A stretch of 64,000 nucleotides of DNA from Candidatus Abzuiibacterium crystallinum (GCA_002787155.1 PCVY01000016.1:71884-135883); one strand, 5' to 3'; positions 9,195-40,891 are shown, counted from the stretch's first letter. The notes: a model not told the origin generated them from the letters alone. Translations and numbers: made by a program.

Positions 9195-9198
9195 GGCA

Positions 9199-9810: not shown

Positions 9811-9811
9811 T

Positions 9812-10803: not shown

Positions 10804-10824
10804 CGACGCAAAGGAGTTGGACAA

Positions 10825-19510: not shown

Positions 19511-20032
19511 ATGTCTGTTAAACCCATCGTGTTGTACCCGGATCATATACTGCGAAAGTCAGTCAAACGTGTTCAGGGCATCACCTCATTTGAACGAGGA
19601 ATCATTAGGGATCTCATTGACACCATGGCTGTTCAACCTGGCGGTATTGGCATTGCAGCCCCGCAAATTGGCTATGATCGAGCGATTGCCGTTATAGATG
19701 TCAGTAGCAGAGAAAAGGGCAAAAAACGGCTTATTCTGGTGAATCCTGAGCTATTAACAGGGGAGGGGGCAAAAATAGGCAGAGAAGGGTGTATGAGTTT
19801 ACCGCATCACACAGGCAATGTTTCGCGGTATGAGAGAGTGACAGTTCATTATCATGATGAAGATTTCAAAGTCCGTCAAATAGCGGCCGCTGGTATTGAA
19901 GCGATTTGTCTTCAGCACGAACTCGATCATTTAAATGGCTATTTGTTTTTAGACCGTGTTCACTCAGTTGCGCGCGATGTTTTTCGTCGGAAAGTCTATC
20001 GACGGCACCCGCCATCGGCTTCAAAAAAGTAA
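19511..20032 (+). CDS. def: Peptide deformylase
   Basis: GIGIAAPQIG, EGCMSLP and QHELDHLNG motifs. I chose ATG 19511 (MSVKPIVLYPD), which removes the overlap created by the ORF-track start at 19388. Confidence 0.85.
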   Translation: MSVKPIVLYPDHILRKSVKRVQGITSFERGIIRDLIDTMAVQPGGIGIAAPQIGYDRAIAVIDVSSREKGKKRLILVNPELLTGEGAKIGREGCMSLPHHTGNVSRYERVTVHYHDEDFKVRQIAAAGIEAICLQHELDHLNGYLFLDRVHSVARDVFRRKVYRRHPPSASKK

Positions 20033-20069
20033 TTTTATTATTTCGACTATTTATTGTAGAATCAAACCC

Positions 20070-21713
20070 ATGCAGCCAGTCATTAAGAAAATTTGCAATC
20101 TTATTAATGCCGAAAGTCTAGAACTGCAATTAGCGGCTATTCGCGTGCTGGCGGAACTTCAGGTGCGGGACCCTCAAGTAGTTCAGCTGATCGGACAGCG
20201 CATCAAAAAAGCTTCTTCGCCGCAGTTAAGGGTTGCTTTGTTAGAGATTGTGGCAAAAACGCCCGTCACCGCTTATCTTCCGCACTTAATTGACGCGTTA
20301 CAAAGCTCCGAAATGCAGCGTGATCGCATCGTGTCAATCATGACGCAAATGGGGCCGGGCGCAGTGCCTTATTTGCGAAAAGCTTACAAAAAGGTTACCT
20401 ATCAAACCAAGCAAGCCATCTTAGATGTGTTTGCACGACTAAAGAGCAGGGAGGCAATCGATTTCCTTTTAATGGCTTTGCTTGATCAAAGCAATTTTGA
20501 ACACCTGCGGTATGTATGCAGTTTATTGCGGCCGATCCTGGCGCAGGCGGAGCGGAAGAACCGTTCGTGGCTCCGGACTCGAATTGTTCGTTTTGTGAAC
20601 CGCACTGATGTGAAGAAAAACGCCTCGGTTTTAACCTCCGGTATTATTTTGATGGGATATTTAGGGGACGTTTCTTTTAAAAAAAATCTTTTGAAATTCA
20701 TCGCAACGAATCGCGAGTTAGGTGTGCGTAAATTTGCACTCATTTCGCTGTCGCTGCTCCCGCTGGAGAAAAAGGGAAATGAAGACGTCATAAAAGCGTT
20801 ATTCCCGCTTTTACACCATGATGATTTTTCAAACATTGTTAAAAACGCGATTGCCACCTTGGAAAAACAGACGCTTCCGGAAAAATATAAGAAACAACTA
20901 ACGAAGCTCTTAGAAAGCCATCATCCGTCCGTACGAAGTTTTGCGCTCTCAAAATTGGGGACATACGATTCGAAAGAAAATGTTTCGACTTTAACGCGTT
21001 ATTTGGATTCTAATGATTTTAGGATCCGGGACGCGGCTAAATCTTCGCTAGAAAAAATGTCACGCGCTGTCCCGGCTTTGTTGATTCAATTTGACCACGC
21101 AAGCGGTCCGGAAAAAGCTAGTCAAATTATTCATATTCTGCAGTCCCACAAGATTTACTTTAAAAAGCGAGCGGCTTGTCAGAGCATCGTGAAACGGGCT
21201 GAAAAGCTAGTGAAACAAAATAATGAGCAGTACAAGCGTTATTTTGCGCTCTTAAAAGCTGTGAATCCTGATTATTTATATACTTATGTGATGACAAGTG
21301 TTAAAGCGTTCCAACGAAAGAAGAAATGGGATCAAGCTCTGTTTTACTTGAATCAAATTGAAGGAAGTGTCCTGTTTAATGAAGAAGCGCGATTTGCCTA
21401 TATGGTTAACCTTCTAAAACGTTCAAAACAGGACCTTTCAAGCGCTTATCGCGACCAAGACAAGGGACTTTTGATGCTTCAAAGCATGGTTAAATCAGCC
21501 GGAGCCAGTTTTGCGAAACGGATCCAAAAGGAGAAGGCCTTTGATCCCAAAGACAAGTACTATATTGGATTTCACTTTTCAGAGAAGTTGTTTGATCTTC
21601 GGGAATTCGGGATTCAAGTATTGAAACAACTGGCTAAAGGGAATACAACGTTGGGGCGGCTTGCCAAGAAGAAGTTAAGCATTGTCGGGAGTCTTTCTGC
21701 AGCAGCAGTTTAG
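20070..21713 (+). CDS. HEAT/PBS-lyase repeat protein, hypothetical
   Basis: Repeated ~30-aa helical repeats of the type IRVLAELQVRDP, SVRSFALSKLG and FRIRDAAKSSL. Start taken at ATG 20070 to avoid overlap with def. Confidence 0.5.
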   Translation: MQPVIKKICNLINAESLELQLAAIRVLAELQVRDPQVVQLIGQRIKKASSPQLRVALLEIVAKTPVTAYLPHLIDALQSSEMQRDRIVSIMTQMGPGAVPYLRKAYKKVTYQTKQAILDVFARLKSREAIDFLLMALLDQSNFEHLRYVCSLLRPILAQAERKNRSWLRTRIVRFVNRTDVKKNASVLTSGIILMGYLGDVSFKKNLLKFIATNRELGVRKFALISLSLLPLEKKGNEDVIKALFPLLHHDDFSNIVKNAIATLEKQTLPEKYKKQLTKLLESHHPSVRSFALSKLGTYDSKENVSTLTRYLDSNDFRIRDAAKSSLEKMSRAVPALLIQFDHASGPEKASQIIHILQSHKIYFKKRAACQSIVKRAEKLVKQNNEQYKRYFALLKAVNPDYLYTYVMTSVKAFQRKKKWDQALFYLNQIEGSVLFNEEARFAYMVNLLKRSKQDLSSAYRDQDKGLLMLQSMVKSAGASFAKRIQKEKAFDPKDKYYIGFHFSEKLFDLREFGIQVLKQLAKGNTTLGRLAKKKLSIVGSLSAAAV

Positions 21714-21781: not shown

Positions 21782-22780
21782 TCACCAATCCTTCTCGACA
21801 TACTCATCCTCGCGCTTCTTCTCCGGAGGTCGCCTGACAATCTGCAGCTCCTGCTCGCCATCCTTAAGTGCATCCAGGATTCGCAAGGCATCTTCTTTTG
21901 ACATTTGACCTTGCAAGTATTCACCGGCTTTAGTACCGCCCTGATTCACTAACTCCTGTTTTTCTGATTGATTTGGCTTTAATTCAGCTTGCTGCTGTGG
22001 CTGTTGTTGCTGAGGCTTTTGGTTAGGTTCGGGCTGCTGCTGGTTCTGTTGCTCATCTTGCTGATTTTTCGGCTTTTTTTGCTCGGTTTCCTTACTTTCC
22101 TGATCATTTTGCTGCTGATTCTGCTCACCCTTTTCTTGTTTTTGATCTTTAGATTGATCTTGCCCTTGATCTTGCTGGTCCTGTTTCGAATCTGATCCGC
22201 CTTGGTTTTGGTTTTGCTGCTGATTTTGGGACTGATTGTTCTGATTCTGATTTTGCTGTTGCTTCTGGTTCTGGTTTTTTTGATTTTCCTGCTGCTTTTC
22301 GTTTTGGCGGTCACGTTCCTTTTGCTTATCTTCAAAAGCGCCTTTTTTCTTCATCAGGAGTTCTAAATTGTGTTTAGCATCTCGATCTTCAGGATCAAGA
22401 TCCAGCGTTTTTTTGTAAGCTTCGACGGCTTTCTCAAAATCCCCCAAGCGGTATTGCCCATTACCGTAGTTATACCAGTATTGCGCCAACATTTTCTTAT
22501 CAGTTTTCTGGTCTTTTGTTTCTTGAATCGCTTTATCCAGTGAAGCCCCCGCATTTACAAAGTCACCCGCTTTGTAGAGAGTCGTCCCAATGTTGTAATG
22601 CACTTCCGGCCGATGGGGGCTTTTGACTTGTGCTTTCTGGAATTGTTCAAGCGCTGATTGATACTTTTTTTGTTCGAACAAATCGTTTCCTTTTTTCGTC
22701 AGGCCGGATGCTGAATCAAACCATGCACTGAAGAAACCTAAAAAACAAAATAGTATGAAAATTCGGAAAAATGGCATCAT
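21782..22780 (-). CDS. TPR-repeat protein with a long Q/N-rich low-complexity region (BatC-like)
   Basis: N-terminal transmembrane/signal segment. TPR motifs (YQSALEQFQKA, YNIGTTLYKAGDF). About 130 aa of QNQ/KQ-rich low complexity. Last gene of the MoxR-vWA array. Start trimmed to the MMPFF Met so it abuts the batB stop. Confidence 0.55.
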   Translation of the reverse strand: MMPFFRIFILFCFLGFFSAWFDSASGLTKKGNDLFEQKKYQSALEQFQKAQVKSPHRPEVHYNIGTTLYKAGDFVNAGASLDKAIQETKDQKTDKKMLAQYWYNYGNGQYRLGDFEKAVEAYKKTLDLDPEDRDAKHNLELLMKKKGAFEDKQKERDRQNEKQQENQKNQNQKQQQNQNQNNQSQNQQQNQNQGGSDSKQDQQDQGQDQSKDQKQEKGEQNQQQNDQESKETEQKKPKNQQDEQQNQQQPEPNQKPQQQQPQQQAELKPNQSEKQELVNQGGTKAGEYLQGQMSKEDALRILDALKDGEQELQIVRRPPEKKREDEYVEKDW

Positions 22781-23778
22781 AATTTTCGCCGATCTGATAA
22801 TAAAGTCGAAAACATGCACAAAGTGAGCCCCATTGCCACAAAAAGCTGAAAATGATCTTCCCGTTCAATGACAAGCTGTTCCTTGAATTCTTGTTTGCCG
22901 AGACTCTGCATGTGCTGATAAATCAACTCTGTTTCGCGCTCAGCGGCAGAAGCTCTGAAATAAAGCCCTTCCGTTTCTTGCGCTAACTGCTTGAGAAAAG
23001 ATTCATCCAGCCTGGTAATGACCACCTGCCCTTCCCTGTCTTTTTTATAGCCCATTGACTTCCCCTCTTTGGATTTTAAGGGGATAGGTTCTCCGTCAGG
23101 CGATCCGATTCCAACGGTGTAAATTTTGACGTTTTCTTTTTTGGCTAACGCGATCGCCTCATCGGCTTGTCCTGCAAGTGATTCACCGTCACTCAAGATA
23201 ACAATGGCGCGATATTTCTTTTGGCTTTCAGGGAAAGAGTGCACCGCTGTTTTAATGCCCTCGCTGAGATTAGTCCCGGGATCCGGAATATAGCCGGCAA
23301 AAATAGAGTTAATAAACAAAGTAAACGCTGAATAATCTAATGTGAGCGGTGACTGCAAAAAGCCTGTGCCGGCAAACGTGACAATGCCAATCCGATCACC
23401 TTTCAAATGCCGCAAGAACGATTTCATCAGGAATTTTGCTTTCTCTAAGCGGTTTGGCTTTACATCTTCGGCCAACATGCTGAGAGATGAATCAACCATA
23501 AATATAATGTCCACACCACGGCGTTTCAATTGTTTCTTTTCCTCTCCCCATTGCGGCTGTGCTAGTCCAACCAACAAAAAAGTAATCCCTAAAATCAGCA
23601 AAGCTGCCTTCCAAAAATACTTCGTAGAACTAAACGAACTGATGAGTTGTTTAATCGTATCAAGCATGCCTAGGGATCGGAGCGCGCGCATCCGCCTTTG
23701 CCACAGCCAGAGATAAAAAACCACGAGGGCTGGCACCAGCCAAAGCAACACCAGGTTATTCGAATGATAGAACTGCAT
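22777..23778 (-). CDS. von Willebrand factor A domain membrane protein (BatB-like)
   Basis: Two N-terminal transmembrane helices. vWA MIDAS motif DSSLSM and ...TDG.... Confidence 0.65.
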   Translation of the reverse strand: MQFYHSNNLVLLWLVPALVVFYLWLWQRRMRALRSLGMLDTIKQLISSFSSTKYFWKAALLILGITFLLVGLAQPQWGEEKKQLKRRGVDIIFMVDSSLSMLAEDVKPNRLEKAKFLMKSFLRHLKGDRIGIVTFAGTGFLQSPLTLDYSAFTLFINSIFAGYIPDPGTNLSEGIKTAVHSFPESQKKYRAIVILSDGESLAGQADEAIALAKKENVKIYTVGIGSPDGEPIPLKSKEGKSMGYKKDREGQVVITRLDESFLKQLAQETEGLYFRASAAERETELIYQHMQSLGKQEFKEQLVIEREDHFQLFVAMGLTLCMFSTLLSDRRKL

Positions 23779-23780
23779 GA

Positions 23781-24764
23781 TTAAGGAACCTTTAAGAAGA
23801 AAGTATTACGGATGATGATTTCGAGCAATAAAATTAGAATGCCAGGCCATAAAAAATAATCAAAGAGTTCATTGAAGCTCTGATATTCTTGAACTTTGAA
23901 ATCACTTTTCTCAAGTTTGTCAATTTTCTCATAAACTTGCGAAAGCATTTGAGCATCACGTGCGGGGAAATATAACCCGCCGGTAATATCGGCGATGCGT
24001 TTGAGCATACGCTCGTCAATAGCCACTTCAGCCTGCACATACCGTTTGCCAAAAATAGGATCATCAATCGGGAACGGCACCAAGCCCCCTGTTCCGATAC
24101 CGATGGTGTAGATGCGGATACCGAAGCTTTTGGCTAATTCAGCAGCTGTCACAGGATCAATGTTGCCCGCATTATTGTCGCCGTCCGTCAACAGAATAAT
24201 GATCCTGCTCTTGGCATCGCTGTCCCGTAACCGATTAACTGCATTGGCAATGGCAAGTCCGATGGCAGTCCCATCTTTAATTAAACCGATTTGCACGTCA
24301 TCAATAAGGCGCGTCAGCACATGGTAATCAAGCGTGAGCGGACATTGGGTGTAACTCTTGCCGGCAAAAACTACCAAGCCGATTCTGTCGCTATGCCTTC
24401 CTTTGATAAAGCGTTTTGCTTCTTCTTTGGCGACGCTAATTCGATTGGCAGGCTTGAAGTCTTCGGCTAGCATCGACCCCGAGATATCCAAAGCTAAAAC
24501 AATGTCAATCCCGCTCGCTTCGAATTCTCTTTCAGCGGATACCTGCTGCGGGCGCGCAAGCGCAGCTATTATTAATAAGAAAGCAACGAGCCGTGCTAGG
24601 TCAAAATAAAATTGGATCCGGCGGGCACTGCCGATCTGAGAAATACGGGCGAATGGCGTAATGGATGAGAATCGGATAGAACTGCTGCGTTTTCTCTTGA
24701 ACCAAAACAGAATAACAGGCAAAAGCACTATGAAAGCAAAAAATTGCGGATCTTTAAAAGTCAT
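23781..24764 (-). CDS. von Willebrand factor A domain membrane protein (BatA-like)
   Basis: N-terminal transmembrane helices. vWA MIDAS motif DISGSM...LLTDGDNN. C-terminal transmembrane helix. Confidence 0.65.
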   Translation of the reverse strand: MTFKDPQFFAFIVLLPVILFWFKRKRSSSIRFSSITPFARISQIGSARRIQFYFDLARLVAFLLIIAALARPQQVSAEREFEASGIDIVLALDISGSMLAEDFKPANRISVAKEEAKRFIKGRHSDRIGLVVFAGKSYTQCPLTLDYHVLTRLIDDVQIGLIKDGTAIGLAIANAVNRLRDSDAKSRIIILLTDGDNNAGNIDPVTAAELAKSFGIRIYTIGIGTGGLVPFPIDDPIFGKRYVQAEVAIDERMLKRIADITGGLYFPARDAQMLSQVYEKIDKLEKSDFKVQEYQSFNELFDYFLWPGILILLLEIIIRNTFFLKVP

Positions 24765-24767
24765 ACA

Positions 24768-25748
24768 TCACGGCGATTGAACGGATGGCGGAATGTGACC
24801 GCCATTTGCTGTGTCTATTTTAGTTATATCAATTATTTCTTTAGAAAATCGGTTCAATTCAAGCACTTCAGCGGGTGAAGGTTTGTATTTGGCAAACTTA
24901 GCTAAGTCACAAAATTCCAATGTTTGGCGAATGAGGGTCAAGGTTTTTCCATCCAGATTCTTTTGCCGAATAGATTGCATGACTTCATCCGTGGTGGATT
25001 CGAGTGCTGAAAAATAAAACCGGCGTTCAAAGTACCGGCGGATAATTTCAGAAAGCTGAAAAAAGTACTCACGGTAAAGCTGCTGCTTGAGTAAGTTGGA
25101 TTCTATTAATCGATTTAATGCTCGATAGGCCTCTTCGTCAGCTGAAAGAGCAGGCTGTTCTCCCATCGCTGTCATGTGTTTTTTTTGACGATTGAACAGC
25201 CGCCATATAGCAGCAATCACAAGAAGGCCTGTGATCAGCGCTAGCCAAATCCATCGTGAATGTTGGAAAAGCAAAATTCCTTTAACGTCCTTAATATCTT
25301 GGCTAGCGCTTTGTCCCTGGTCAATGCTTTCAACGGTTAAGTAAAGTTGGTTGGTTTCAGTGCTTTGCGGTGTTCGGTTCTGGTCGAGATAGCTGATAAT
25401 GGCTGGAGCCATGACGTACTCCCCTACTTGGTAACTGGTAAAAACAACGTCTCTCCCCTCCTCAATTTGTCCGTCCGATTTTTCTTGTTTAAAAGGCGTG
25501 TCTTGTTTAACCTCAAAATCTTTTAGCGGCTCAGCGGTGTTAATTTGCGTGATTTGAATCTTAGGATCATGCGTAACCGTGATTTTAAAATGGACTTGAT
25601 CACCAATGGTGATGAAGGCATTATCAACGGCTGATTTGACTGAAATATCAGCGTCTTCTGCACCGATCGCTCCCAGTGGGCAGTAAAGGATAGATAAGGT
25701 GTAAAACAGCAAAAAAAGGCTAATTACACGCGATTTCAAGCCCATCAT
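24768..25748 (-). CDS. Hypothetical signal-peptide / single-TM protein with a cytoplasmic C-terminal tail (BatD/DUF4381-like architecture)
   Basis: Signal peptide, beta-rich ectodomain, TM WIWLALITGLLVIAAIW and a charged helical tail. Position between the DUF58 and vWA genes. Confidence 0.4.
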   Translation of the reverse strand: MMGLKSRVISLFLLFYTLSILYCPLGAIGAEDADISVKSAVDNAFITIGDQVHFKITVTHDPKIQITQINTAEPLKDFEVKQDTPFKQEKSDGQIEEGRDVVFTSYQVGEYVMAPAIISYLDQNRTPQSTETNQLYLTVESIDQGQSASQDIKDVKGILLFQHSRWIWLALITGLLVIAAIWRLFNRQKKHMTAMGEQPALSADEEAYRALNRLIESNLLKQQLYREYFFQLSEIIRRYFERRFYFSALESTTDEVMQSIRQKNLDGKTLTLIRQTLEFCDLAKFAKYKPSPAEVLELNRFSKEIIDITKIDTANGGHIPPSVQSP

Positions 25749-26620
25749 TTCCTCTTTTCACGTTCACGAAATAGCTTGATCAGAGGCTCGGTGTAAGAAC
25801 CGTCTGTTTGAATATCAACGCGGTCAATCCCAATGGATCGAAACAAACGGTTTAGGCGTAAAAAACGTTCTTCAAAATGCCGTTGATAAGCATCGCAAAT
25901 TTGCTTTGAGCGGGTATCGACGAGGACTTTTTCTCCCGTTTCCGCATCCTCCAATTCTAACATAGCAGATCGAGGCAGTTTTTTTTCCCGGGGATCCACT
26001 AACCGGATGGCAATCACATCGTGCTTACGGCCGAGCACCTTAAGAGGCTTTTCATAACCGTCATCCATAAAGTCGGACACAATAAAAATGATCGCATTAC
26101 GGCGCAAGGATTTCTGAAGATGTTCAAGCGCAGCTTTTAAATTGGTTTTTTTCCGCTTTGGTTCGTAGAAAAGAATTTCACGGATAACCCTCAAAGCGTG
26201 GCTGCGGCCTTTTTTAATGGGGACAATTTTCTCAATTTCATCGGTAAAAATTAAGAGACCGACCTTATCATTGTTTCGAATTGCCGAAAATGCCAGCAAT
26301 GCACAAATTTCAGCAGCAATGGTGGATTTGAATTTAGAGGCAGTTCCAAAGTGCTGTGAGCCCGAACCATCCACAACGAACAAGACGGTCAGTTCACGTT
26401 CTTCAACATACTTCTTTACAAAGGTTTTATCCGACCGCGCCGTCACATTCCAATCAATCGTACGAATGTCATCGCCCGGAACATATTCGCGCACATCAGC
26501 AAATTCAATTCCTTGGCCTTTAAAAATCGACCCGTACTCTCCGCCGAATAAGTCATTGACCAAGCGGTTGGTTCGAATTTCAATGCGCTTAACTTGTTTT
26601 AGAACATCTTTTGGAATCAT
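25745..26620 (-). CDS. DUF58 family protein (MoxR partner, vWA-like)
   Basis: Motif LTVLFVVDGSGSQHF. Immediately downstream of, and overlapping, the MoxR ATPase gene. Confidence 0.7.
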   Translation of the reverse strand: MIPKDVLKQVKRIEIRTNRLVNDLFGGEYGSIFKGQGIEFADVREYVPGDDIRTIDWNVTARSDKTFVKKYVEERELTVLFVVDGSGSQHFGTASKFKSTIAAEICALLAFSAIRNNDKVGLLIFTDEIEKIVPIKKGRSHALRVIREILFYEPKRKKTNLKAALEHLQKSLRRNAIIFIVSDFMDDGYEKPLKVLGRKHDVIAIRLVDPREKKLPRSAMLELEDAETGEKVLVDTRSKQICDAYQRHFEERFLRLNRLFRSIGIDRVDIQTDGSYTEPLIKLFREREKRK

Positions 26621-27609
26621 TAGGGAACTTCAATTTGGTCAAAGATTTTGCCAACAATGTCCTCGGATCGCATCTCTTCCGCTTCCGCCTCATAAGTGAC
26701 GATGACGCGATGGCGTAAAACGTCCATCCCAATTTGCTTAACATCCTCGGGCGTCACATATCCCCTGCCCTTCAAAAAAGCTTGTGCTTTTGCGGCAACC
26801 GTCAACATAATGCTGGCTCTCGGAGAAGCGCCAAAATTAATCAACGGTTTCAAGGAATCCAGTTTGTAGTTTTCGGGGTTTCGAGTCGCAAACACAATGT
26901 CGAGAATGTAATCCTTTATTTTTTCATCGACATAGATTTGGTTGACTAATTTTCGCAGGTCAAGAATATGCTTGGCTTCCATCACAGGCTGCACTTGGAT
27001 TTCGGTTCCGGTTGACATGCGTTCTAAGATTTCTTTTTCTTCTTTTCTGGTTGGGTAAGTAACCGAAAGCTTAAGCATGAAGCGGTCAACTTGTGCTTCA
27101 GGCAGCGGATAAGTTCCTTCTTGTTCAATGGGATTTTGGGTTGCCAGAACCAGAAATGGATCATCCAGTTTAAATGTCGTGTCACCGATTGTTACTTGGC
27201 GTTCTTGCATAGCTTCCAAGAGAGCGCTTTGCACTTTTGAAGGGGCGCGGTTAATTTCATCTGCCAGAATAATGTGAGAAAAAATTGGTCCTTTTTTTGT
27301 AGTGAAATGTCCGTCTTTGGGATTGTAAACCAAAGTACCGATCAAATCGGCCGGTAGAAGGTCTGGGGTGAACTGGATTCGCTGAAAATCGGTACGGATG
27401 GCATTTGCCAGCGTCCGCACAGCGGTTGTTTTTGCCAATCCAGGCACGCCTTCTATTAAAATGTGTCCATTGCCGAGCAGCCCGATCATTAAGCGTTCAA
27501 TCAGATATTTCTGTCCAACCATCACCTTGTTTATTTCTTGAAACAGTGTTTCAAGTTTGGTGTGTTCGGACTTAATTTTATCCCCAAGTTCACGGATGCT
27601 AGCTTGCAT
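26620..27609 (-). CDS. moxR: MoxR-family AAA+ ATPase
   Basis: Walker A GVPGLAKT. Walker B ILADEINRA. Typical ~330-aa MoxR length. Confidence 0.85.
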   Translation of the reverse strand: MQASIRELGDKIKSEHTKLETLFQEINKVMVGQKYLIERLMIGLLGNGHILIEGVPGLAKTTAVRTLANAIRTDFQRIQFTPDLLPADLIGTLVYNPKDGHFTTKKGPIFSHIILADEINRAPSKVQSALLEAMQERQVTIGDTTFKLDDPFLVLATQNPIEQEGTYPLPEAQVDRFMLKLSVTYPTRKEEKEILERMSTGTEIQVQPVMEAKHILDLRKLVNQIYVDEKIKDYILDIVFATRNPENYKLDSLKPLINFGASPRASIMLTVAAKAQAFLKGRGYVTPEDVKQIGMDVLRHRVIVTYEAEAEEMRSEDIVGKIFDQIEVP

Positions 27610-27628
27610 AGATTCCTCCAGTATTTTG

Positions 27629-28555
27629 TTAGGCTGATATGACGGCTGCTACAGGTTCATGTTGATGAATAAACTGTCGGGAAAGTCTAACGGTATCCAT
27701 AAAGACTTCTTGATCAATTTGATTACCCGCGTAATTTAATTTCTCGAGCTGATCTAGGATGATGCCTATTTTTTTCTGCTCGTTTTCTTCTAATGCTGTT
27801 AATTTGGTCGACTTAAATTCATTCATGCTGCGTGCATGCCATTTTAACACGCAATAGTCATTTATAATTGAAGATAATTCTTCTATCTCCTTCATTTCAC
27901 AATGACGTGCTTTCACTTGCATTTCTAAGTGTTCGAGTTTTACAAGTTGCGTTTGTTCGAGCGAAGTGACCGGAACGGCTCTTACCGCCCTCCTCCGCTG
28001 AGTACTGGTCTTTAACAAAATGATGGGAAGAATAACGCAAATCAGGGCACCCGTCAGAGAGATTGGCCAATAAGTTTTTAGCCATTTTGCTGCAGAAGAG
28101 GAAAAAATGGTGAGCGGCTGTTCATTGATAGTGATAGAGGTGATTTCGGCCGCCTCTTTTGCTTGGTAGGAAAACTGAAACGCACGGACCGTAGCAACCC
28201 CGTTTTTGATCGGCTTAAACGTAAAATTGAAGGACTTTATAATTTGCGGTCCTTTTGACTCGATCGACTGCCCTATTTTAGTGAGGATTAAATTGTCTAA
28301 CTTAAGCGAAGGAATCAAAAAGCGGTAATCGTTTGGATCACCATGCCAAATGAATTGAACATTAAGCGTAAAAGCATCATCCAGTGTGAGTTCTTGTCCG
28401 GAATGAGTCGTTTTAACTGTCAGATCAGTGTTAGAAAAAACATTGACCGGCAGCAAGATAAATGCGCTACCGGCCAATACGATCAAAAGGAAAACCAGTT
28501 GCAACCGTTTACTTATCAGCATGCTCTTATGAGCGCTCGTAATAAGAAACAACAA
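27629..28555 (-). CDS. Hypothetical membrane protein with the same architecture as 24768..25748 (N-terminal TM, ectodomain, TM, cytoplasmic coiled tail)
   Basis: Two transmembrane segments flanking a ~130-aa beta-rich region. Lies 14 bp downstream of dnaK and 19 bp upstream of moxR. Confidence 0.4.
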   Translation of the reverse strand: MLFLITSAHKSMLISKRLQLVFLLIVLAGSAFILLPVNVFSNTDLTVKTTHSGQELTLDDAFTLNVQFIWHGDPNDYRFLIPSLKLDNLILTKIGQSIESKGPQIIKSFNFTFKPIKNGVATVRAFQFSYQAKEAAEITSITINEQPLTIFSSSAAKWLKTYWPISLTGALICVILPIILLKTSTQRRRAVRAVPVTSLEQTQLVKLEHLEMQVKARHCEMKEIEELSSIINDYCVLKWHARSMNEFKSTKLTALEENEQKKIGIILDQLEKLNYAGNQIDQEVFMDTVRLSRQFIHQHEPVAAVISA

Positions 28556-28569
28556 GCGGTTAATTTAAG

Positions 28570-30507
28570 TTATTTCTTCTTATTCCCCTCGTCATCATCA
28601 ACAACTTCGTAATCAGCATCTACGACATCGCCTTTGTCCTTTGCTTTGGAGCCTTGTGATGATGATGGTTCTGCCTGAGATGTCTGTTGTGCCCCCTGCT
28701 GCTTTTTAGCAGCTTCTGCATACATTTTTTGAGCAACAGCATGAGAAGCTTGCGTCAGTTTTTCCTGTGCGCTCTGAAGCGTAGAGATGTCTTCAGAATG
28801 CAAAACTTCTTTTGCAGCTTTTAATTCCTGTTCTATTTTCTTTTTTTCGTCTTCGGTAATTTTATCTCCGTATTCTTTCAAGCTTTTCTCAACGGAATAA
28901 ATTAAATTGTCTAAAGTATTTTTGGCTTGAACCAGTTCGTGTTTTTTCTTGTCCTCAGAAGCATGTTTTTCCGCTTCCTTGACCAGTTTGTCAATCTCAT
29001 CTTTGGAAATTCCGGAGGACGATTCAATCCGAATCTTTTGTTCCTTGCCGGTTCCCAAGTCTTTTGCCGACACATGCACAATGCCGTTGGCGTCGATGTC
29101 GAATGTGACTTCAATTTGAGGTACGCCACGCGGCGCTGCTGGTATCCCTTCTAAATTAAAAATACCGAGCACTCGGTTTCCTGATGCCATCTCACGTTCG
29201 CCTTGCAACACTTTCACGGTAACAGCTGTTTGATTATCCGAGGCGGTTGAGAAGATTTCCGACTTTTTGGTTGGAATGGTCGTGTTACGTTCAATCAGCT
29301 TCGTCATCACGCCGCCAAGTGTTTCAATCCCCAGTGATAAAGGTGTCACATCCAAAAGAAGGACGTCTCTCACTTCCCCTGCTAAAACACCGCCCTGAAT
29401 AGCTGCGCCTACCGCGACCACCTCATCCGGATTAACACCCTGATGCGGATCTTTTTGGAATAGCTTCTTAACCTGTTCTTGAACCGCCGGCATGCGCGTT
29501 TGACCGCCGACCAAAATCACCTCATCAATTTGAGAAGCTGAAAGACCGGCGTCTTTGAGGCATTGCTGGCATGGGCCGATGGTGCGTTCTACCAATTCTT
29601 GAACCAGCTGTTCTAACTTTGAACGCGTAAGCGACATAACCAAGTGCTTTGGTCCGGAGGCATCAGCAGTGATAAAAGGCAAGTTAATTTCAGTGGATTG
29701 AGAAGTCGAAAGCTCGCATTTAGCTTTTTCGGCCGCTTCTTTCAAACGCTGTAAGACCATGCGATCTTTTGAAAGATCAACACCCTGATCTTTTTTAAAC
29801 TCACTCACAAGCCAGTTGATGATCTTTTGATCGAAATCGTCGCCGCCTAAATGTGTGTCGCCATTGGTGGCCTTAACTTCAAACACGCCATCTCCGATTT
29901 CAAGAATTGAAATATCAAAAGTACCGCCGCCAAGATCATAAACAGCGATTTTTTCTTCTTTCTTTTTGTCAAGTCCATAAGCCAAGGCCGCCGCCGTTGG
30001 CTCATTGATGATGCGAAGCACTTCCAATCCGGCAATTTGCCCGGCATCTTTTGTGGCTTGCCGCTGTGAATCATTAAAATATGCGGGAACCGTTATGACT
30101 GCTTGTTTGATCGTCTCACCCAAAAAAGCTTCCGCGTCTGCTCGGAGTTTTTGTAAAACAAGAGCTGATATTTCAGGCGGTGTAAAATCCCGGCCGTTGA
30201 CATGTATCGCGGCTTCGCCGCTTTTACCTTCTCTGACCTCAAAAGGGACAAGCGAGATCTCAGATTTCACTTCGTTAATTCGTCTGCCAATAAAGCGCTT
30301 AGCACTGAAAATCGTATTTTCAGGATTAGTGACAGCCTGCCGCTTAGCCGCCTGGCCCACATGCCGTTCATTATTTTTGGTAAATGCAACAATTGAGGGC
30401 GTGGTTCGATTCCCTTCTTTGTTTGGAATCACTTTCGGTTCTCCACCCTCAATGATCGCCATACATGAATTGGTTGTTCCTAAATCAATCCCTAAAACTT
30501 TTCCCAT
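28570..30507 (-). CDS. dnaK: Molecular chaperone DnaK (Hsp70)
   Basis: [18 protein letters not shown] and the full Hsp70 ATPase, substrate-binding and lid domains. 645 aa. Confidence 0.95.
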
Positions 30508-30556
30508 GGTTTATCCCCTTTTTAATCATTTTAATAAAACTGTCTACTCAATCTAG

Positions 30557-30572
30557 TTCAAGTAGTGTGCCA
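30557..30572 (-). promoter_or_regulatory. Candidate sigma54 promoter TGGCAC-ACTAC-TTGAA on the minus strand, upstream of dnaK
   Basis: Perfect -24 TGGCAC. -12 TTGA with canonical spacing. The predicted TSS lies about 38 nt before the dnaK ATG. A sigma54 activator gene is immediately upstream. No CIRCE/HrcA inverted repeat found. Confidence 0.35.
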
Positions 30573-30696
30573 AAGATCAGAGCAATCCTATGTCTTGTAA
30601 GTTACTCAAAATAAAAGACTTAAGGAATACCGTTAAAATGATAAGGCTTCAATCATCTGGAAATTGAATTCTATTGAACCATGCAGTGTGTCAATA

Positions 30697-32064
30697 TTAC
30701 ACGTTCAGCCCATACTCTTCCAGCTTGCGATAGAGGGTTCGGCGGGAGATTCCTAACTTTTTGGCCGCAAGTGATTTGTTGCCTTTTACCGCTCTAAGCG
30801 CCCTCTCAATCCAATTTTTCTCCATCGAAGAAAGACTGCTGCTATCTGACTCATTCTTTTTAGACGTTGCAGAAGATGTGACACTGATTAAGTCAGACGG
30901 GATCAAATCCACATCAAGTTTTGGCTCTTTGCTTAGCACAATCATTCGTTCAATAATATTGCGCAGTTCACGAATATTGCCAGGCCAATCATATTGTTGA
31001 AAAAACTTCAACGCTCGAGGCGTAATGGACTTAACATCGCGGCGATTCTTCACTGCAAGAATATGGATGAAATGTTGTGCCAGCACTTCGATGTCTTCTT
31101 TCCGCTCTCTTAAAGACGGAACTCTGAGTAAAATAACATTAATACGATAAAAAAGATCTTCCCGAAATTTACCTGCCTGCACCTGGTTCTTTAGAATCTT
31201 ATTGGTCGCACAAATTAATCGAACGTCCGCTTTTAACGTTTTAGCGCTTCCGACACGTTCGTATTCACCGGACTGAAGAAAACGAAGTAATTTGATTTGG
31301 GTCGTTTCCGTAATTTCGCCAATTTCATCTAAAAAAAGCGTGCCGCCGTGTGCCCTCTCGAACCGGCCGGTTTTTCGCTCTGAGGCACCTGTAAAAGCCC
31401 CTTTTTCATGTCCGAACAATTCACTGCTCAGCAAACTTTCAGTCAGCGCTCCGCAATGCACCGTCACAAACGGCGCTTGTCGACGCCTGCTAAACTGATG
31501 AATGGCATGTGCCAGTAATTCTTTACCTGTTCCGCTCTCTCCTTCAATTAAAACTGTTGCATCCGATTCAGCTACTTGCTTTGCGGTTTTTAATAATGCC
31601 TGTATTGGTTCTGACTGGCCGATGATTTGATTCGTTTCAAATTTCGCGTCTAACAATTCTTGTCGCAGGCTCTTATTTTCTTGCTCGAGAGAGTTTTCTC
31701 TAAAGGCTTTCTTTAAAATAATCTCCAATTCATCCAGATTGACAGGTTTGCTGAGATAGTAATAGGCACCTGCCTTCATGGCCTGAACGGCAGTTTCAAC
31801 AGTTCCATACGCAGTTAAAACGATAACGATCATAGCAGGGTATAATTCTTTGAAGCGTCTGAGTAAAGTCAACCCGTCCATCTCCGGCATCCGCAAATCA
31901 ATCAATGCCAAATCTGGCCGGTGCGTTTTTGCTGTCTCCAACGCCTCGGTGCCGTTGGCAGCCATCCACACGTCGTAGTCTTTGCTTTCTAAGAATATCC
32001 GCATGCCGTCACGGGTATTCTTTTCGTCATCTACAATCAAGACTGAGTTAAATAAATTGTTCAT
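30697..32064 (-). CDS. Sigma54-dependent response regulator (NtrC family)
   Basis: REC domain (DLRMPEMDG). AAA+ with GESGTGKE and GAFTGA. C-terminal HTH. Confidence 0.85.
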   Translation of the reverse strand: MNNLFNSVLIVDDEKNTRDGMRIFLESKDYDVWMAANGTEALETAKTHRPDLALIDLRMPEMDGLTLLRRFKELYPAMIVIVLTAYGTVETAVQAMKAGAYYYLSKPVNLDELEIILKKAFRENSLEQENKSLRQELLDAKFETNQIIGQSEPIQALLKTAKQVAESDATVLIEGESGTGKELLAHAIHQFSRRRQAPFVTVHCGALTESLLSSELFGHEKGAFTGASERKTGRFERAHGGTLFLDEIGEITETTQIKLLRFLQSGEYERVGSAKTLKADVRLICATNKILKNQVQAGKFREDLFYRINVILLRVPSLRERKEDIEVLAQHFIHILAVKNRRDVKSITPRALKFFQQYDWPGNIRELRNIIERMIVLSKEPKLDVDLIPSDLISVTSSATSKKNESDSSSLSSMEKNWIERALRAVKGNKSLAAKKLGISRRTLYRKLEEYGLNV

Positions 32065-33232
32065 TTCTTTTTTGAGTTGGCTGAGGACTTGGCAATGGTA
32101 ACTTTTCTTTTTGAATCGGCAGATAAATATGAAAGGCGGTTCCTTTGTTTAATTGACTTTGCACTTCAATGCGGCCGTGATGTTCCCGAATGATTTGATA
32201 AGCAATCACGAGTCCTAGTCCGCTCCCCTCTTCTTTGGTGGTGTAATAAGCGTCAAAGATTTTATCCAAGGCTTTACGGTCCATCCCGTGCCCGGTATCT
32301 TCAATAGAGATTCGGCAGAGAGCCTGGTTTTTTTTAACGGTAATCCGTAAAGTGCCCCCATTCGGCATGGCTTGAATTGAATTCTTGATGATATTCAAAA
32401 ACACTTGGTTAAGACGTTCCTCATCCATCAGAAATGGTTCCAATTTATGATCAAAAATACTTTTGAGTTTAATGTGCTGCTGTTTAAATTCGGGCTCAAG
32501 CAAACGAAGCACATCCTTTAGGATGTCTTGCAGATTACCTTTCTCAAATTGGATGGGCTTGCGGCGTGTGGCGCGCAAAAAGTTCTTAACAATTTGATCA
32601 AGCCGATCGGTCTCTTCCGAGACCACCTCGATCGATTCTTTGATTGTCTTTGCGTATCGGGCGGGTATCAGTCCAAGCTGCTTGGCAATTAACTGCAAAT
32701 GGATATTAATCGAGTTAAGGGGGTTACCGATTTCGTGGGCAACCCCAGATGCTAATGTCACAATAGCAGCTAGATGTTCTTGTTGATATCTTTCTTTCAA
32801 ACGTTCGTCGTGGTGGGTTTCGGGCAATAAACTAACGACGTAAGAACCTTTTAAGCGCTTTAAGCACAGGATACTAATTCGTAAATACTGATGACGGGGC
32901 ATCAAGAGTTGAAATGGTTCGTCAAAAACCTCATTATTTTCATGGATAATGCTTTTCAGCCGTTGTTTTAAATTTTGATCAAAAATAAGATGATCCAGAG
33001 TTCTGTCTTGCGGCGTTTCCGATTGAATCCCCAGAATGCGTTGCGCTGGAAGATTAAGATAGGTTACTTGCAATTGCGAATCAATGACTAGAACACCCTC
33101 ATGAATTGCATCGAGCAGTTCCGCAGTTTTTTTCTGGTGATCGCAAAGCGAAGAAACCCATTCAGCCAGTTTATCTTTATCAATGTTATCAATTCGCTTG
33201 ATCGCTTTGAGGTAGAAGTCCGGTGTCATCAT
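32048..33232 (-). CDS. Cytoplasmic PAS-domain sensor histidine kinase (NtrB-like)
   Basis: No transmembrane segments. PAS-like N-terminus. H-box HEIGNPL. HATPase motifs DTGHGM and GSGLGL. Overlaps the downstream RR gene and the upstream trpF stop. Confidence 0.75.
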   Translation of the reverse strand: MMTPDFYLKAIKRIDNIDKDKLAEWVSSLCDHQKKTAELLDAIHEGVLVIDSQLQVTYLNLPAQRILGIQSETPQDRTLDHLIFDQNLKQRLKSIIHENNEVFDEPFQLLMPRHQYLRISILCLKRLKGSYVVSLLPETHHDERLKERYQQEHLAAIVTLASGVAHEIGNPLNSINIHLQLIAKQLGLIPARYAKTIKESIEVVSEETDRLDQIVKNFLRATRRKPIQFEKGNLQDILKDVLRLLEPEFKQQHIKLKSIFDHKLEPFLMDEERLNQVFLNIIKNSIQAMPNGGTLRITVKKNQALCRISIEDTGHGMDRKALDKIFDAYYTTKEEGSGLGLVIAYQIIREHHGRIEVQSQLNKGTAFHIYLPIQKEKLPLPSPQPTQKRNEQFI

Positions 33233-33870
33233 GACTTTAATGTTTTAATCTCATCGCCTTTCGCCAACCGTATGAATTCACGCAGGAGATCCGGGTCTTT
33301 TTGACCGGGTGCCTTCTCAACGCCGCTTGCCACATCGATGGCATAAGGCTTTACAGTCTGGACGGCGTGTTTAACATTGTCTACGCTGAGTCCTCCCGCA
33401 AGAAATAATCGTTCACGCACATAAGGTTTTTCATCGATCAAAGACCAATCAAAGATTTGACCGGTACCGCCTTTTTCTTTACTTGAATAGGTGTCAAAGA
33501 GAAAAGCATCGACATTGTACTCGTCGATCCGTTTTAAGCTCATGGCATCTTTGATGTGGAAAGTCTTGATGATCTTATAACCTTTTTGTGAAAAATAGTC
33601 ACAGTACCGGCTTGTTTCTTCACCGTGGAATTGGAGCCACTGAAGACCTAGCAATTCGACAATTTTTTCTACTTCTTCTTTAGGTTGGTTGGCAAAAACA
33701 CCAACAAATGCTTTAAAATCTTTCATGTGTTCCATCATTTGTTTTGCTGTATCAGCCGTAATAAGACGTTTACTTTTTGCAAATATAAAACCCAGAAAAT
33801 CAGCGCCATACTGTCGCGCCAATTGGGCATCTTCTAAATTGGTGTTTCCGCAAATCTTAACTTGAACCAT
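33229..33870 (-). CDS. trpF: Phosphoribosylanthranilate isomerase
   Basis: MVQVKICGNTNLEDA...GADFLGFIF PRAI N-terminal signature. 213 aa. Confidence 0.8.
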   Translation of the reverse strand: MVQVKICGNTNLEDAQLARQYGADFLGFIFAKSKRLITADTAKQMMEHMKDFKAFVGVFANQPKEEVEKIVELLGLQWLQFHGEETSRYCDYFSQKGYKIIKTFHIKDAMSLKRIDEYNVDAFLFDTYSSKEKGGTGQIFDWSLIDEKPYVRERLFLAGGLSVDNVKHAVQTVKPYAIDVASGVEKAPGQKDPDLLREFIRLAKGDEIKTLKS

Positions 33871-33871
33871 A

Positions 33872-34651
33872 TCAGCAGCCTCGCAATTCTCTGAGTTTTT
33901 CTAAAATATTTGTCGATTTCATCAAAGTGCTACCAATCAAAAAACCATCCGCTCGTTCTTGATAAGTTTGAATATCGTTATGCGATGAAATACCGCTTTC
34001 CACCACGGCTAAAAGATTTTTTGGCACCTTTTCTAAAAGTTGTTTCGCATAGTTGACGTCAGTTTGAAGCGTGTCAAGATTTCGATTATTAATCCCAATC
34101 AAATCTGACCCCGCGTCGATTACCATTTGTAGTTCGTCTTCGCGATGAATTTCGGTCAACACTTCAAGTCCTAACGTGCGAGCCAGTTTCAAAAAGTCAC
34201 TCATTTGTGCCGGCGTGAGGATAGCGGCAATTAACAAAATGATATCAGCCCCGATTAAACGTGATTCATATATTTGATATTCATCAATAATAAAGTCTTT
34301 TCTTAAAATTGGTATTTTTGAAAGCGGTCTTAAACGTCTCACGTGTTCAATGCTGCCGGAGAAATAGTGAGGTTCAGTTAAAATCGAAACGGCCGCCGCG
34401 CCGCCTTTTTCAAACTGTCTTAAAAGATGTTGCGGAACATACCGATGCTTGAGCATGCCCTCCGAAGGCGAGCTTTTTTTCATTTCACAAATCAAATGAG
34501 GCCTGCTTTCGCGGTTTTGCAAAACGGATTTCAAACTGCGGACGGAAACTTTGTGAGTTAAGAGCGCCCGTTTCAGTTTTTGAAGCGGGTAAAGATTTTT
34601 TGCTTCCACCACCTGATTTTTCTTTTTATTGACAATTTGATCCAGTATCAT
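33872..34651 (-). CDS. trpC: Indole-3-glycerol phosphate synthase
   Basis: ILDQIVNKKK N-terminus. KKSSPSEG and ILRKDFIID motifs. Start set at the Met whose ATG overlaps the trpD stop in an ATGA arrangement. The ORF-track start at 34801 would add 50 non-conserved residues inside trpD. Confidence 0.8.
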   Translation of the reverse strand: MILDQIVNKKKNQVVEAKNLYPLQKLKRALLTHKVSVRSLKSVLQNRESRPHLICEMKKSSPSEGMLKHRYVPQHLLRQFEKGGAAAVSILTEPHYFSGSIEHVRRLRPLSKIPILRKDFIIDEYQIYESRLIGADIILLIAAILTPAQMSDFLKLARTLGLEVLTEIHREDELQMVIDAGSDLIGINNRNLDTLQTDVNYAKQLLEKVPKNLLAVVESGISSHNDIQTYQERADGFLIGSTLMKSTNILEKLRELRGC

Positions 34652-35694
34652 TGGCTTAACCGCCTCAATTGATTCAAAACCATAAGTGCTTTTCCTGTCT
34701 TTAAAATGACGGCCGCTTTTTGAATTCCTGCCCGAATGGACGGTGAAATACCTGCCACATAAAGCATGGCGCCTGCGTTTGCCAGCACGACATCCGTGCA
34801 AGCGCTTCGATCTGTGCCGTTTAGAATCCTGAGCGTCTTTTTTGCATTAAACAGCGCTCCGCCCCCCTTAAGATCTTTGGTCTGCGAGCGTCGTAAAAGC
34901 CATTGCTTTGGTTGAAACCGACCGTATTTAATTTGGCTTTTTTTAAGTTCAGCCGTATATGTTATTTGATGGGTGGTGATTTCATCCGTCCCATCCTGGC
35001 CTGAGACAACAAGCGCGTGTCGACAGCCAAGTAACTTGAGCGTTTTAATCAATAACGGAATATATCGATAATGAAAAACACCGATGACCTGTCTTTTAAC
35101 ATGCAATGGATTTAAAAGCGGACCGGATAAATTAAAAATAGTTTTCATCTTCTGACGTGCCAATGCTTGACGTGCAGGCGCGGCGTATCGAAATGCCTTT
35201 GTATACGCAGGGGCATGAAAATAGCCAAATCCAATTTGCTTTAATGATCTTAACATCGCATGGCTAGGCGCCTGAATCCTAACCCTTAAAGCTTTCATCA
35301 AATCAGAACTGCCAGCTCGCGAGGTGATCGAATAATTTCCATGTTTGGCCACATAAGCGCCTGCCGCAGCTGCAACAAGTGAAGCGGCGGTTGAAATATT
35401 AATGGTTTGCTTCCCGTCGCCCCCGGTTCCGCAGCCATCACAAAGATTGGCGTGCACAGGTTTAAACTTGAGGCGTTTTTGAATGCGGCGGGCTGCTTTC
35501 ACTAGGCCGGTTAACTCTGTAACCGCCTCTCCTTTTTTTTGAAGTAATGCCAAAATTTGCACTACCGTTTCGAAAGGTAATCGATTACGGATGAGCAGTG
35601 TGAATAGTTTCCTGCTTTCCGATTGTTCTAAGTCTTTACCTAGCAACAGCTTATCTATAACTCTTTTTCTATTCATAGTGTGTAATAATAGCAC
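34648..35694 (-). CDS. trpD: Anthranilate phosphoribosyltransferase
   Basis: GTGGDG motif. GNYSITS. Length 348 aa. Confidence 0.85.
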   Translation of the reverse strand: MLLLHTMNRKRVIDKLLLGKDLEQSESRKLFTLLIRNRLPFETVVQILALLQKKGEAVTELTGLVKAARRIQKRLKFKPVHANLCDGCGTGGDGKQTINISTAASLVAAAAGAYVAKHGNYSITSRAGSSDLMKALRVRIQAPSHAMLRSLKQIGFGYFHAPAYTKAFRYAAPARQALARQKMKTIFNLSGPLLNPLHVKRQVIGVFHYRYIPLLIKTLKLLGCRHALVVSGQDGTDEITTHQITYTAELKKSQIKYGRFQPKQWLLRRSQTKDLKGGGALFNAKKTLRILNGTDRSACTDVVLANAGAMLYVAGISPSIRAGIQKAAVILKTGKALMVLNQLRRLSQ

Positions 35695-35721
35695 ACTTGA
35701 AAATACGAATCAACGGACAAA

Positions 35722-39673: not shown

Positions 39674-39674
39674 G

Positions 39675-40882: not shown

Positions 40883-40891
40883 AGCTTTTTC

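Follow-up and report, generated by a model that had tools for sequence, protein, structure and literature searches.

A dnaK gene with a predicted sigma-54 promoter at the head of a Bat-like MoxR-vWA gene array in Omnitrophota

A 64,000-nt stretch of the genome of Candidatus Abzuiibacterium crystallinum (GCA_002787155.1 PCVY01000016.1:71884-135883; hereafter, the window) contains a minus-strand array of eight genes (30507-21782) in which dnaK is followed by genes for the membrane protein P2, a MoxR ATPase, a DUF58 protein, the membrane protein P5, BatA-like and BatB-like von Willebrand factor A (vWA) proteins and a tetratricopeptide repeat (TPR) protein. A sequence-only reading of the window had proposed this array, and a map of open reading frames (ORFs) together with profile searches bore it out. 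The same locus was found on metagenome contigs of up to 116 kb. The array is made up as follows:

28570-30507, minus strand: dnaK, a canonical Hsp70 of 645 aa (Pfam HSP70, 899 bits)
28523-28569, minus strand: dnaK-P2 spacer of 47 bp (sequence, terminator scan and RNAfold)
27629-28522, minus strand: P2, a BatD/DUF4381-like membrane protein of 297 aa with the ATG at 28522 (longest ORF, 27629-28555)
26620-27609, minus strand: MoxR-family AAA+ ATPase of the AAA_3 type (Pfam AAA_3, 220 bits, and AAA_lid_2)
25745-26620, minus strand: DUF58 protein, cytoplasmic and vWA-like (Pfam DUF58, 274 bits; DGSGS)
24768-25748, minus strand: P5, a paralog of P2 by hhalign, with a BatD-like domain, a transmembrane helix and a DUF4381-like domain
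23781-24764, minus strand: BatA-like vWA membrane protein (Pfam VWA and BatA N-terminal domain)
22777-23778, minus strand: BatB-like vWA membrane protein (Pfam VWA_2/VWA; DSSLS)
21782-22780, minus strand: BatC-like TPR protein, the last gene of the array (TPR families; longest ORF, 21782-22819)

The 19-bp gap between P2 and moxR agrees with the earlier description, and from moxR onward the junctions consist of overlaps or of gaps of 2-3 bp, as had been proposed, with DUF58 overlapping moxR by 1 nt and P5 overlapping DUF58 by 4 nt. Two start codons were revised. The 14-bp gap formerly assigned to the dnaK-P2 junction is a product of the TTG start of the longest ORF; because P2 starts at ATG 28522 in the gene calls of four publicly available copies, each from a different sample, and because its signal peptide begins at this codon, a 47-bp spacer is more likely than a 14-bp one. 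For the TPR gene, ATG 22780 is the most likely start (332 aa), which gives a 4-nt overlap with the BatB-like gene. An AAGGGG resembling a Shine-Dalgarno sequence lies ahead of the dnaK ATG and a GGAGG Shine-Dalgarno sequence precedes moxR, and the ribosome-binding site of P2 is at best weak in the window. Beyond the TPR gene lies a convergent gene (19956-21713), and no BatE-like gene follows the array.

Upstream, dnaK is preceded by a region of 189 bp (30508-30696), in agreement with the length given earlier, at the far end of which a response regulator gene terminates. The following features were recognized in and beyond this region:

32048..33232, minus strand: soluble PAS-HisKA-HATPase sensor histidine kinase (Pfam)
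30697..32064, minus strand: NtrC-type sigma-54 enhancer-binding response regulator (receiver, AAA+ and Fis-type helix-turn-helix domains)
30688..30702, no strand assigned: candidate activator-binding palindrome GTGTAATATTGACAC, which overlaps the stop codon of the regulator; tentative
30558..30572, minus strand: sigma-54 type -24/-12 promoter motif TGGCACactacTTGA, 65 nt upstream of the dnaK ATG

The regulator matches Pfam Sigma54_activat with 236 bits and has a GAFTGA motif at residue 222 and a Walker A motif (GESGTGK) at residue 175. No transmembrane-like segment was detected in the kinase, which is the likely partner of the adjacent regulator. The promoter motif, TGGCAC-N5-TTGA, agrees with the consensus at 9 of 10 positions, including the GG at -24, and it is the single match to TGGCAC-N5-TTGM on either strand of the window, where 0.31 were expected. 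Equivalent sites were found 57-116 nt upstream of dnaK in seven loci of related genomes (L005, L006, L015, L086, L089, L090 and L091), three of which (L006, L015 and L086) have the full TTGC element at -12. A second sigma-54 module within the window served as an internal control. There, on the plus strand, TGGCATgtcaaTTGA (TGGCAT-N5-TTGA; 5358-5372) lies between a gene pair for a histidine kinase and a PilR-like sigma-54 response regulator (2590-3831 and 3831-5204, respectively) and a type IV pilin gene (N_methyl, 5415-5882). This module (2590-5882) has the classic PilSR-pilA layout and carries the same TTGA variant at -12. T2SSE and T2SSF genes lie upstream of it, and pilM, pilN, pilO and secretin genes lie downstream (8130-12540).

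The kinase is kept upstream of dnaK in L005, L006, L086, L089, L090 and L091, and the regulator lies directly upstream of dnaK in six relatives, save for one extra ORF between the two genes in L005. This 234-residue ORF (9012-9716, plus strand) has a weak DUF6901 match and was seen at that place in L005 only, where the sigma-54 promoter lies downstream of it. The palindrome GTGTAATATTGACAC has one mismatch to GTGTCA-N3-TGACAC, an element picked by eye whose pattern matched three times in the window versus 1.6 expected and is not significant alone. Similar palindromes were present at the equivalent place in L006, L086, L089 and L090, and an unbiased palindrome search for an activator site was dominated by AT-rich noise. 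Further upstream on the same strand (33229-42145), trpEGDCF directly precedes the kinase and regulator genes, with overlapping stop and start codons; the kinase gene begins at 33232, inside the 3' end of trpF (33229-33870), and genes for his biosynthesis are located beyond the trp genes. Because the trp-kinase junction is kept in four relatives (L086, L089, L090 and L091), the kinase and the regulator may be co-transcribed with the trp operon.

The absence of grpE, dnaJ and a CIRCE element (controlling inverted repeat of chaperone expression) near dnaK, which had been reported earlier, was found to extend over the whole window. Neither grpE nor dnaJ was detected in the 64 kb by tblastn or Pfam searches, no hrcA was present among the annotated ORFs of the window, and the CIRCE inverted repeat (TTAGCACTC-N9-GAGTGCTAA) had no match there even with 3 mismatches. 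A single look-up of the extension of the source contig returned pilus and lipid genes only, and no co-chaperone genes. The predicted sigma-54 promoter, together with the adjacent NtrC-type two-component system, would explain why CIRCE is missing at this dnaK.

We also scanned the 250 nt upstream of dnaK at 168 loci for sites agreeing with at least 9 of 10 consensus positions. Among the matches listed, 60 sigma-54-like sites were found versus 1.0 expected, and at dozens of these loci the sequence (G/T)GGCAC-N5-TTGC was nearly fixed at -73 from the dnaK start. The loci with the -73 site (L024, L027, L033, L037, L040, L053, L055, L096, L101-L168 and others) were labelled Gemmatimonadota, Gemmatimonadales or Longimicrobiales, or were unlabelled metagenome sequences; sites were also present in L010 (Lentisphaerales), L093 and L152. 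No activator gene adjoined dnaK at the Gemmatimonadota-type loci with the -73 site. These results suggest that dnaK may commonly be driven by sigma-54 in phyla with the -73-type site, and sigma-54 promoters at dnaK are widespread, not peculiar to the window locus. In L152, a high-GC relative whose DnaK is 74% identical, TGGCACgggcgCTGCT lies upstream of dnaK (~4880-4930) after two direct repeats of GGGTGCGACAC; these repeats resemble activator binding sites and have a GACAC core in common with the tentative window site. In L015, TGGCAT-N5-TTGC (6692-6706) lies ~100 nt upstream of dnaJ (6798-7877), which is itself located between two HtrA/DegP genes, and this site hints at a sigma-54 heat-shock regulon that reaches beyond dnaK in the lineage. 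Locus L097, where a sigma-54 regulator gene lies upstream of grpE-dnaK, was considered as a parallel case and rejected, as no sigma-54 motif was found there.

The DnaK of the window passes the NCBIfam equivalog cut-offs (NF001413, 1044 bits, cut-off 648; TIGR02350, 999.8 bits, cut-off 822.55) with an alignment to these models that covers residues 1-639. Among the matches listed, its identity to the DnaKs of many other phyla is 64-69%, and its orthologs adjoin grpE in L066 and dnaJ in L015. Because of the equivalog scores, the identity across phyla, the co-chaperone genes beside its orthologs and a promoter type that is common to dnaK genes lacking Bat-like neighbors, we conclude from sequence and gene context that this DnaK is the housekeeping heat-shock chaperone, not a specialized paralog. 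The dedicated chaperone suggested by the sequence-only reading was not supported.

In order to place the array in a wider context, relatives were gathered by a DnaK search, with one genome per species, and by tblastn with all proteins of the locus; seven further relatives were obtained via close MoxR homologs (75-78% identity). A metagenome DnaK scan, in which the listed matches were almost only DnaKs of other lineages (64-68% identity), served as a negative control. The adjacency of dnaK and moxR, which the earlier reading had proposed to check in relatives, was conserved. MoxR, DUF58, P5, BatA and BatB genes lie downstream of dnaK in L005 (DnaK 79% identical), L015 (68%) and L066 (66%), and L086, L089, L090 and L091 contain the full series of trpEGDCF, kinase, regulator, dnaK, P2, MoxR, DUF58, P5, BatA and BatB(/TPR). 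In the Omnitrophota locus L006 (DnaK 76% identical), the kinase and regulator lie upstream of dnaK and the sequence ends at dnaK. In total, 8 of the 11 examined Bat-like loci of the Omnitrophota type have dnaK ahead of the Bat-like operon. Outside the clade, no MoxR gene was found within 5 kb downstream of dnaK at any of the 93 loci with at least 3 kb of downstream sequence among the matches listed; at the 156 outside-clade dnaK loci among these matches, grpE lay just upstream of dnaK in 54 and dnaJ just downstream in 34. Since MoxR is downstream in most of the Omnitrophota relatives examined and in none of the 93 informative outside loci, the eight-gene arrangement is more than chance.

Rearranged flanks make two of the linked loci, the deep-branching L015 and L066, the informative ones. 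The gene order in L015 is HtrA, dnaJ, HtrA, dnaK, TPR, BatD-like, MoxR, DUF58, TPR/SurA_N-like, P5, BatA, BatB and TPR, and in L066 it is HtrA, grpE, dnaK, Zn-ribbon, small ORF, BatD-like, MoxR, glycosyltransferase, DUF58, TPR-PPIase (peptidyl-prolyl isomerase), P5, BatA and BatB. The Bat-like genes of both loci belong to a broader protein-quality-control cluster.

At the dnaK-P2 junction of the window, scans of the 47-bp spacer detected neither a terminator nor a recognizable promoter, and RNAfold returned only a weak structure with a long loop. No sigma-54-like site was found from the middle of dnaK to moxR in the window, between dnaK and moxR in any linked locus, or upstream of P2 in the loci that lack dnaK. 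A terminator between dnaK and the next gene had been named earlier as a finding that would speak against linkage; there is none in the window, and three relatives (L005, L089 and L015) have a strong, GC-rich, terminator-like hairpin with a U-tract right after dnaK. In L005 and L089 only ~20-37 nt separate the hairpin from the start codon of P2, which is too short for a separate promoter, so that P2 must be transcribed through the hairpin in these loci. This geometry suggests that the Bat-like genes may be reached by attenuated read-through from dnaK.

As for the proteins encoded downstream, MoxR shows 100% identity with a protein listed at NCBI for Ca. Omnitrophica bacterium CG11_big_fil_rev_8_21_14_0_20_45_26, and every named close homolog came from Omnitrophica/Omnitrophota. 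DxSxS motifs of the metal ion-dependent adhesion site (MIDAS) are present in DUF58 (DGSGS), the BatA-like protein (DISGS) and the BatB-like protein (DSSLS). The BatA-like protein, with transmembrane segments at its N- and C-terminus, matched NCBIfam BatA_Lepto with 216.7 bits, under the cut-off of 380, and the BatB-like protein, with three transmembrane-like segments, matched BatB_Lepto with 150.6 bits, under the cut-off of 350; judged by these profile scores, both are homologs, not equivalogs, of Leptospira BatA and BatB. The TPR protein carries an N-terminal signal/transmembrane segment, and its best NCBIfam match was BatC_Lepto (94 bits, under the Leptospira-specific cut-off of 175). Its C-terminal half (21782-22350, minus strand) contains a low-complexity stretch of ~140 residues, nearly all Q, N, K, E and D (e.g., QQENQKNQNQKQQQNQNQNNQSQNQQQNQNQ). 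Several relatives (L088, L089) have a fusion of the BatB-like and TPR genes that encodes one protein of ~700 residues.

P2 and P5 are paralogous (hhalign, 99.5%, E 2e-22) and have a common layout of a signal/transmembrane segment, a BatD/DUF11-like beta domain, a transmembrane helix and a helical, DUF4381-like cytoplasmic domain; the transmembrane-like segments of P2 are at 10-28 and 152-170. Since a homology search of the database with P2 returned P2 itself as the sole match, the family is too fast-evolving for word-based searching, and P2 homologs were taken by position in the loci of relatives. These positional homologs match Pfam BatD, with the L066 copy above the cut-off (26.1 bits), and across the P2/P5 family BatD was matched by 7 of 11 members and DUF4381 by 7 of 11. 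P5 has a conserved DLxKFAKY motif in its DUF4381-like domain and a weak match to the Leptospira LB_053 family. Single-sequence AlphaFold models of P2 and P5 were poor (predicted local distance difference test scores of 49 and 51, respectively) and were used for the secondary-structure pattern only. The BatD architecture formerly ascribed to both proteins is therefore appropriate for the N-terminal domain, and neither is a full-length BatD. The resemblance to a Bat operon that had been recognized earlier was confirmed, with MoxR, DUF58, BatA- and BatB-type and TPR proteins all present and with gene order and domains that match the Bat/MRP type.

Taken as a whole, we think it probable, with some reservation, that an ordinary dnaK is transcribed here from a sigma-54 promoter, likely under the adjacent kinase and regulator, with read-through into the Bat-like operon, and that the locus represents a stress cluster inherited in Omnitrophota. 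According to this reading, a cytoplasmic signal would act on the soluble PAS kinase, leading to phosphorylation of the adjacent NtrC-type activator, which would bind upstream in the 189-bp region and remodel sigma-54 RNA polymerase at TGGCAC-N5-TTGA. Following transcription of dnaK, a fraction of the polymerase would continue into P2, moxR, DUF58, P5, the batA-like and batB-like genes and the TPR gene; this read-through is proposed because of the spacing, the terminator-free junction of the window and the geometry of the hairpins in relatives. Stress would raise cytoplasmic Hsp70 and, at a lower level, a membrane-anchored MoxR/vWA complex, with partial termination allowing one regulated promoter to provide much DnaK and little of the Bat-like proteins. 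As members of their families, MoxR and DUF58 would reside in the cytoplasm and the BatA/BatB-type proteins in the inner membrane; P2 and P5, whose sequences predict a beta domain on the periplasmic side and a helical domain on the cytoplasmic side, could bridge the two sides of the membrane. The coupling would consist of co-regulation within a stress/proteostasis cluster rather than of an Hsp70 dedicated to the MoxR system, and the dnaK/Bat-like linkage is probably regulatory. By analogy with the stress phenotypes of Bat-type operons in Riemerella and Francisella and with the presence of htpG in the Leptospira bat cluster, the physiological role would most likely be stress tolerance or envelope proteostasis.

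Several observations weigh against this reading. The -12 element in the window is TTGA, not the consensus TTGC, and rpoN was not found in the 64-kb window. A weak sigma-70-like sequence (TTGTTG-17-TCATAA), below the threshold of the promoter scan, was seen by eye in the dnaK-P2 spacer, and the hairpins that follow dnaK in L005, L089 and L015 resemble terminators. Furthermore, three Omnitrophota loci (L085, L087 and L088) carry the P2-to-TPR operon without dnaK, with genes for phosphoenolpyruvate carboxykinase (PEPCK) or a HAD hydrolase upstream, and the Bat-like operon can therefore be expressed independently. Finally, closer relatives are syntenic over the whole neighborhood, from the trp operon to def, and part of the conservation may reflect inheritance, not selection; since unrelated flanks are also syntenic, these loci are weak evidence for selection. 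The envelope-stress module envisaged by the sequence-only reading was upheld in part, in that HtrA, DnaJ or GrpE and TPR-PPIase or SurA-like proteins in L015 and L066 fit a proteostasis/envelope-stress theme, but the link between dnaK and the Bat-like genes is separable.

The same observations are accommodated by an alternative that we regard as unlikely, though deserving serious attention, in which dnaK is transcribed from its sigma-54 promoter as a single gene, the Bat-like operon is served by an unrecognized promoter of its own, and the two are neighbors by inheritance with no functional link. P2 is always the first gene of the operons without dnaK, the synteny of closer relatives takes in def, ACT and poly(A) polymerase genes downstream as well as trpEGDCF upstream, and genes of the Leptospira bat cluster can be independently transcribed (PMC3557215). 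However, the link is kept in L015 and L066 despite their rearranged flanks and DnaK identities of only 66-68%, it was seen at none of the 93 other dnaK loci among the matches listed, and the extra proteostasis genes of L015 and L066 argue for a functional theme. The lack of room for a promoter between the hairpin and P2 in L005 and L089 and the short, terminator-free spacer of the window also speak against separate transcription. In a crude neighbor-joining tree of MoxR, DUF58 and BatA, linked loci occupied the two deepest branches and the main clade, and the unlinked loci formed one sister pair and one nested lineage, a distribution that fits an ancestral dnaK/Bat-like link with at least two losses.

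A stronger form of the read-through reading, in which all eight genes, dnaK included, make up a single operon that is driven by sigma-54, is controlled by the two-component system and has physically cooperating products, appears doubtful to us. Cytosolic Hsp70 would then have the cytoplasmic DUF4381-like tails of P2 and P5, as well as the MoxR-DUF58 pair, as its targets or intermediaries. If true, cytoplasmic folding would be coupled to a trans-membrane, periplasmic vWA complex, and Bat/MoxR-vWA systems would gain a defined role in proteostasis.

It is more improbable still that this DnaK is a dedicated Hsp70 partner of the MoxR/vWA machine, the two forming one physical module that works without the usual GrpE and DnaJ. 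Such a module would be in keeping with the tight array and the absence of grpE and dnaJ from the 64 kb, the helical tails that P2 and P5 extend into the cytoplasm could serve for docking, and MoxR proteins of this subfamily are described as showing chaperone-like activity (PMC11432383). On the other hand, the equivalog scores and the 64-69% identity across phyla among the matches listed indicate no specialized divergence, orthologs stand beside grpE or dnaJ, the Bat-like operon occurs without DnaK in three relatives, and, among the matches listed, the promoter type also occurs at dnaK genes of lineages in which MoxR is absent from the following 5 kb. Least credible of all is the view that the MoxR and vWA genes represent a ternary MoxR-vWA system for conflict or phage defence that lies beside dnaK by accident, since the match of MoxR to Pfam bpMoxR (MoxR-vWA-beta-propeller ternary systems; 62 bits) is far exceeded by that to AAA_3 (220 bits), the array has no beta-propeller or effector gene, PADLOC defence-system models matched none of the eight proteins, and gene order and domains fit the Bat/MRP type.

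Operons of the Bat/MoxR-DUF58-vWA kind are found very widely and play a part in stress tolerance and virulence. Like the Bat/MRP operons of Bacteroides, Riemerella, Francisella and spirochaetes, the array combines MoxR, DUF58, two MIDAS vWA proteins, a TPR protein and a BatD-like domain in a tight, same-strand arrangement. It differs from them in that MoxR is not first, P2 precedes MoxR and its paralog P5 follows DUF58, there is no full-length BatD and no BatE, the Leptospira BatA, BatB and BatC models score under their cut-offs, and dnaK lies directly upstream; the array belongs to an uncultured organism represented by metagenome assemblies only. In Riemerella, a two-component system controls the Bat operon, which responds to heat and oxidative stress by induction, and stress phenotypes of Bat-type operons have been reported for both Riemerella and Francisella (PMC11834572). 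The BatA-like BB0173 of Borrelia resides in the inner membrane and exposes its vWA domain to the periplasm (PMC5700661). The bat cluster of Leptospira contains htpG, which encodes Hsp90, and the HtpG protein drops in a batABD deletion mutant (PMC3557215). As in the window, a gene for a general cytosolic chaperone is contiguous with, and on the same strand as, moxR and bat genes; unlike the Hsp70 gene at the head of the present array, the Hsp90 gene lies at the downstream end, with apparently independent promoters and in another phylum. The statement in the sequence-only reading that no Hsp70 was known to head such an operon is consistent with our finding no description in the open-access literature of a dnaK heading a Bat-like cluster, or of MoxR/Bat genes in Omnitrophota, but a general chaperone in a bat cluster does have a precedent in htpG.

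In E. coli, the enhancer-binding protein PspF is encoded beside the sigma-54 promoter of an envelope-stress operon, pspABCDE, and lacks a receiver domain. The likeness to the window locus is an analogy of logic only, with no sequence relationship to the Psp proteins. In Chlamydia, a sigma-54 promoter and an NtrC-type two-component activator take part in the transcription of dnaK, and of grpE too, according to a passage of PMC8762339 that cites Soules et al. (2020). The Chlamydia operon retains hrcA and grpE along with CIRCE-type repression, and its activator is not adjacent, whereas none of hrcA, grpE and CIRCE was found in the 64 kb of the window, where kinase and regulator genes lie immediately upstream. 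The HsfB/HsfA-lonD system of Myxococcus includes a heat-shock gene that is activated by an NtrC-like response regulator, according to PMC9109919, which cites Ueki and Inouye (2002). A 2025 survey predicts sigma-54 control of DnaK, DnaJ, GrpE and GroEL in Planctomycetota and Bacteroidota (PMC12316311), and the term Omnitrophota had no match in it. The regulons predicted for these two phyla resemble the window locus in placing heat-shock chaperone genes behind -24/-12 promoters and differ from it in having no tie to a Bat-like operon. With precedents both for sigma-54 control of dnaK and for a chaperone in a bat cluster, the locus is not a new kind of system. What it adds is comparative evidence that places Bat-like MoxR/vWA systems in a proteostasis/envelope-stress network, as the deeper branches of Omnitrophota hold the Bat-like operon together with dnaK and HtrA, DnaJ or GrpE, and a SurA/PpiD-like PPIase. 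It also extends predicted sigma-54 control of dnaK to Omnitrophota, offers a testable circuit of kinase, sigma-54 activator and promoter, and bears on heat-shock regulation in bacteria without the HrcA/CIRCE arrangement at dnaK.

Large gene calls were observed near the Bat-like operon in several relatives. In L086 (16427-20990, minus strand) and L089 (17025-20990, minus strand), calls for giant proteins of 17,115 and 14,634 residues, respectively, with no Pfam matches recorded, begin just past the Bat-like operon and yqeY; the counterpart position in the window is occupied by a HEAT-repeat gene. Upstream of the operons that lack dnaK, gene calls fuse enzymes in L085 (1-4427; 5,725 residues), with PEPCK, enoyl-CoA hydratase and AMP-binding domains, and in L087 (1-8972; 3,060 residues), with isocitrate lyase, malate synthase and PEPCK. 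These products may be real multi-enzyme fusions or gene-calling artefacts. In both L085 and L087, a common motif, TTTTCCCCTTGATTTA, lies just upstream of P2.

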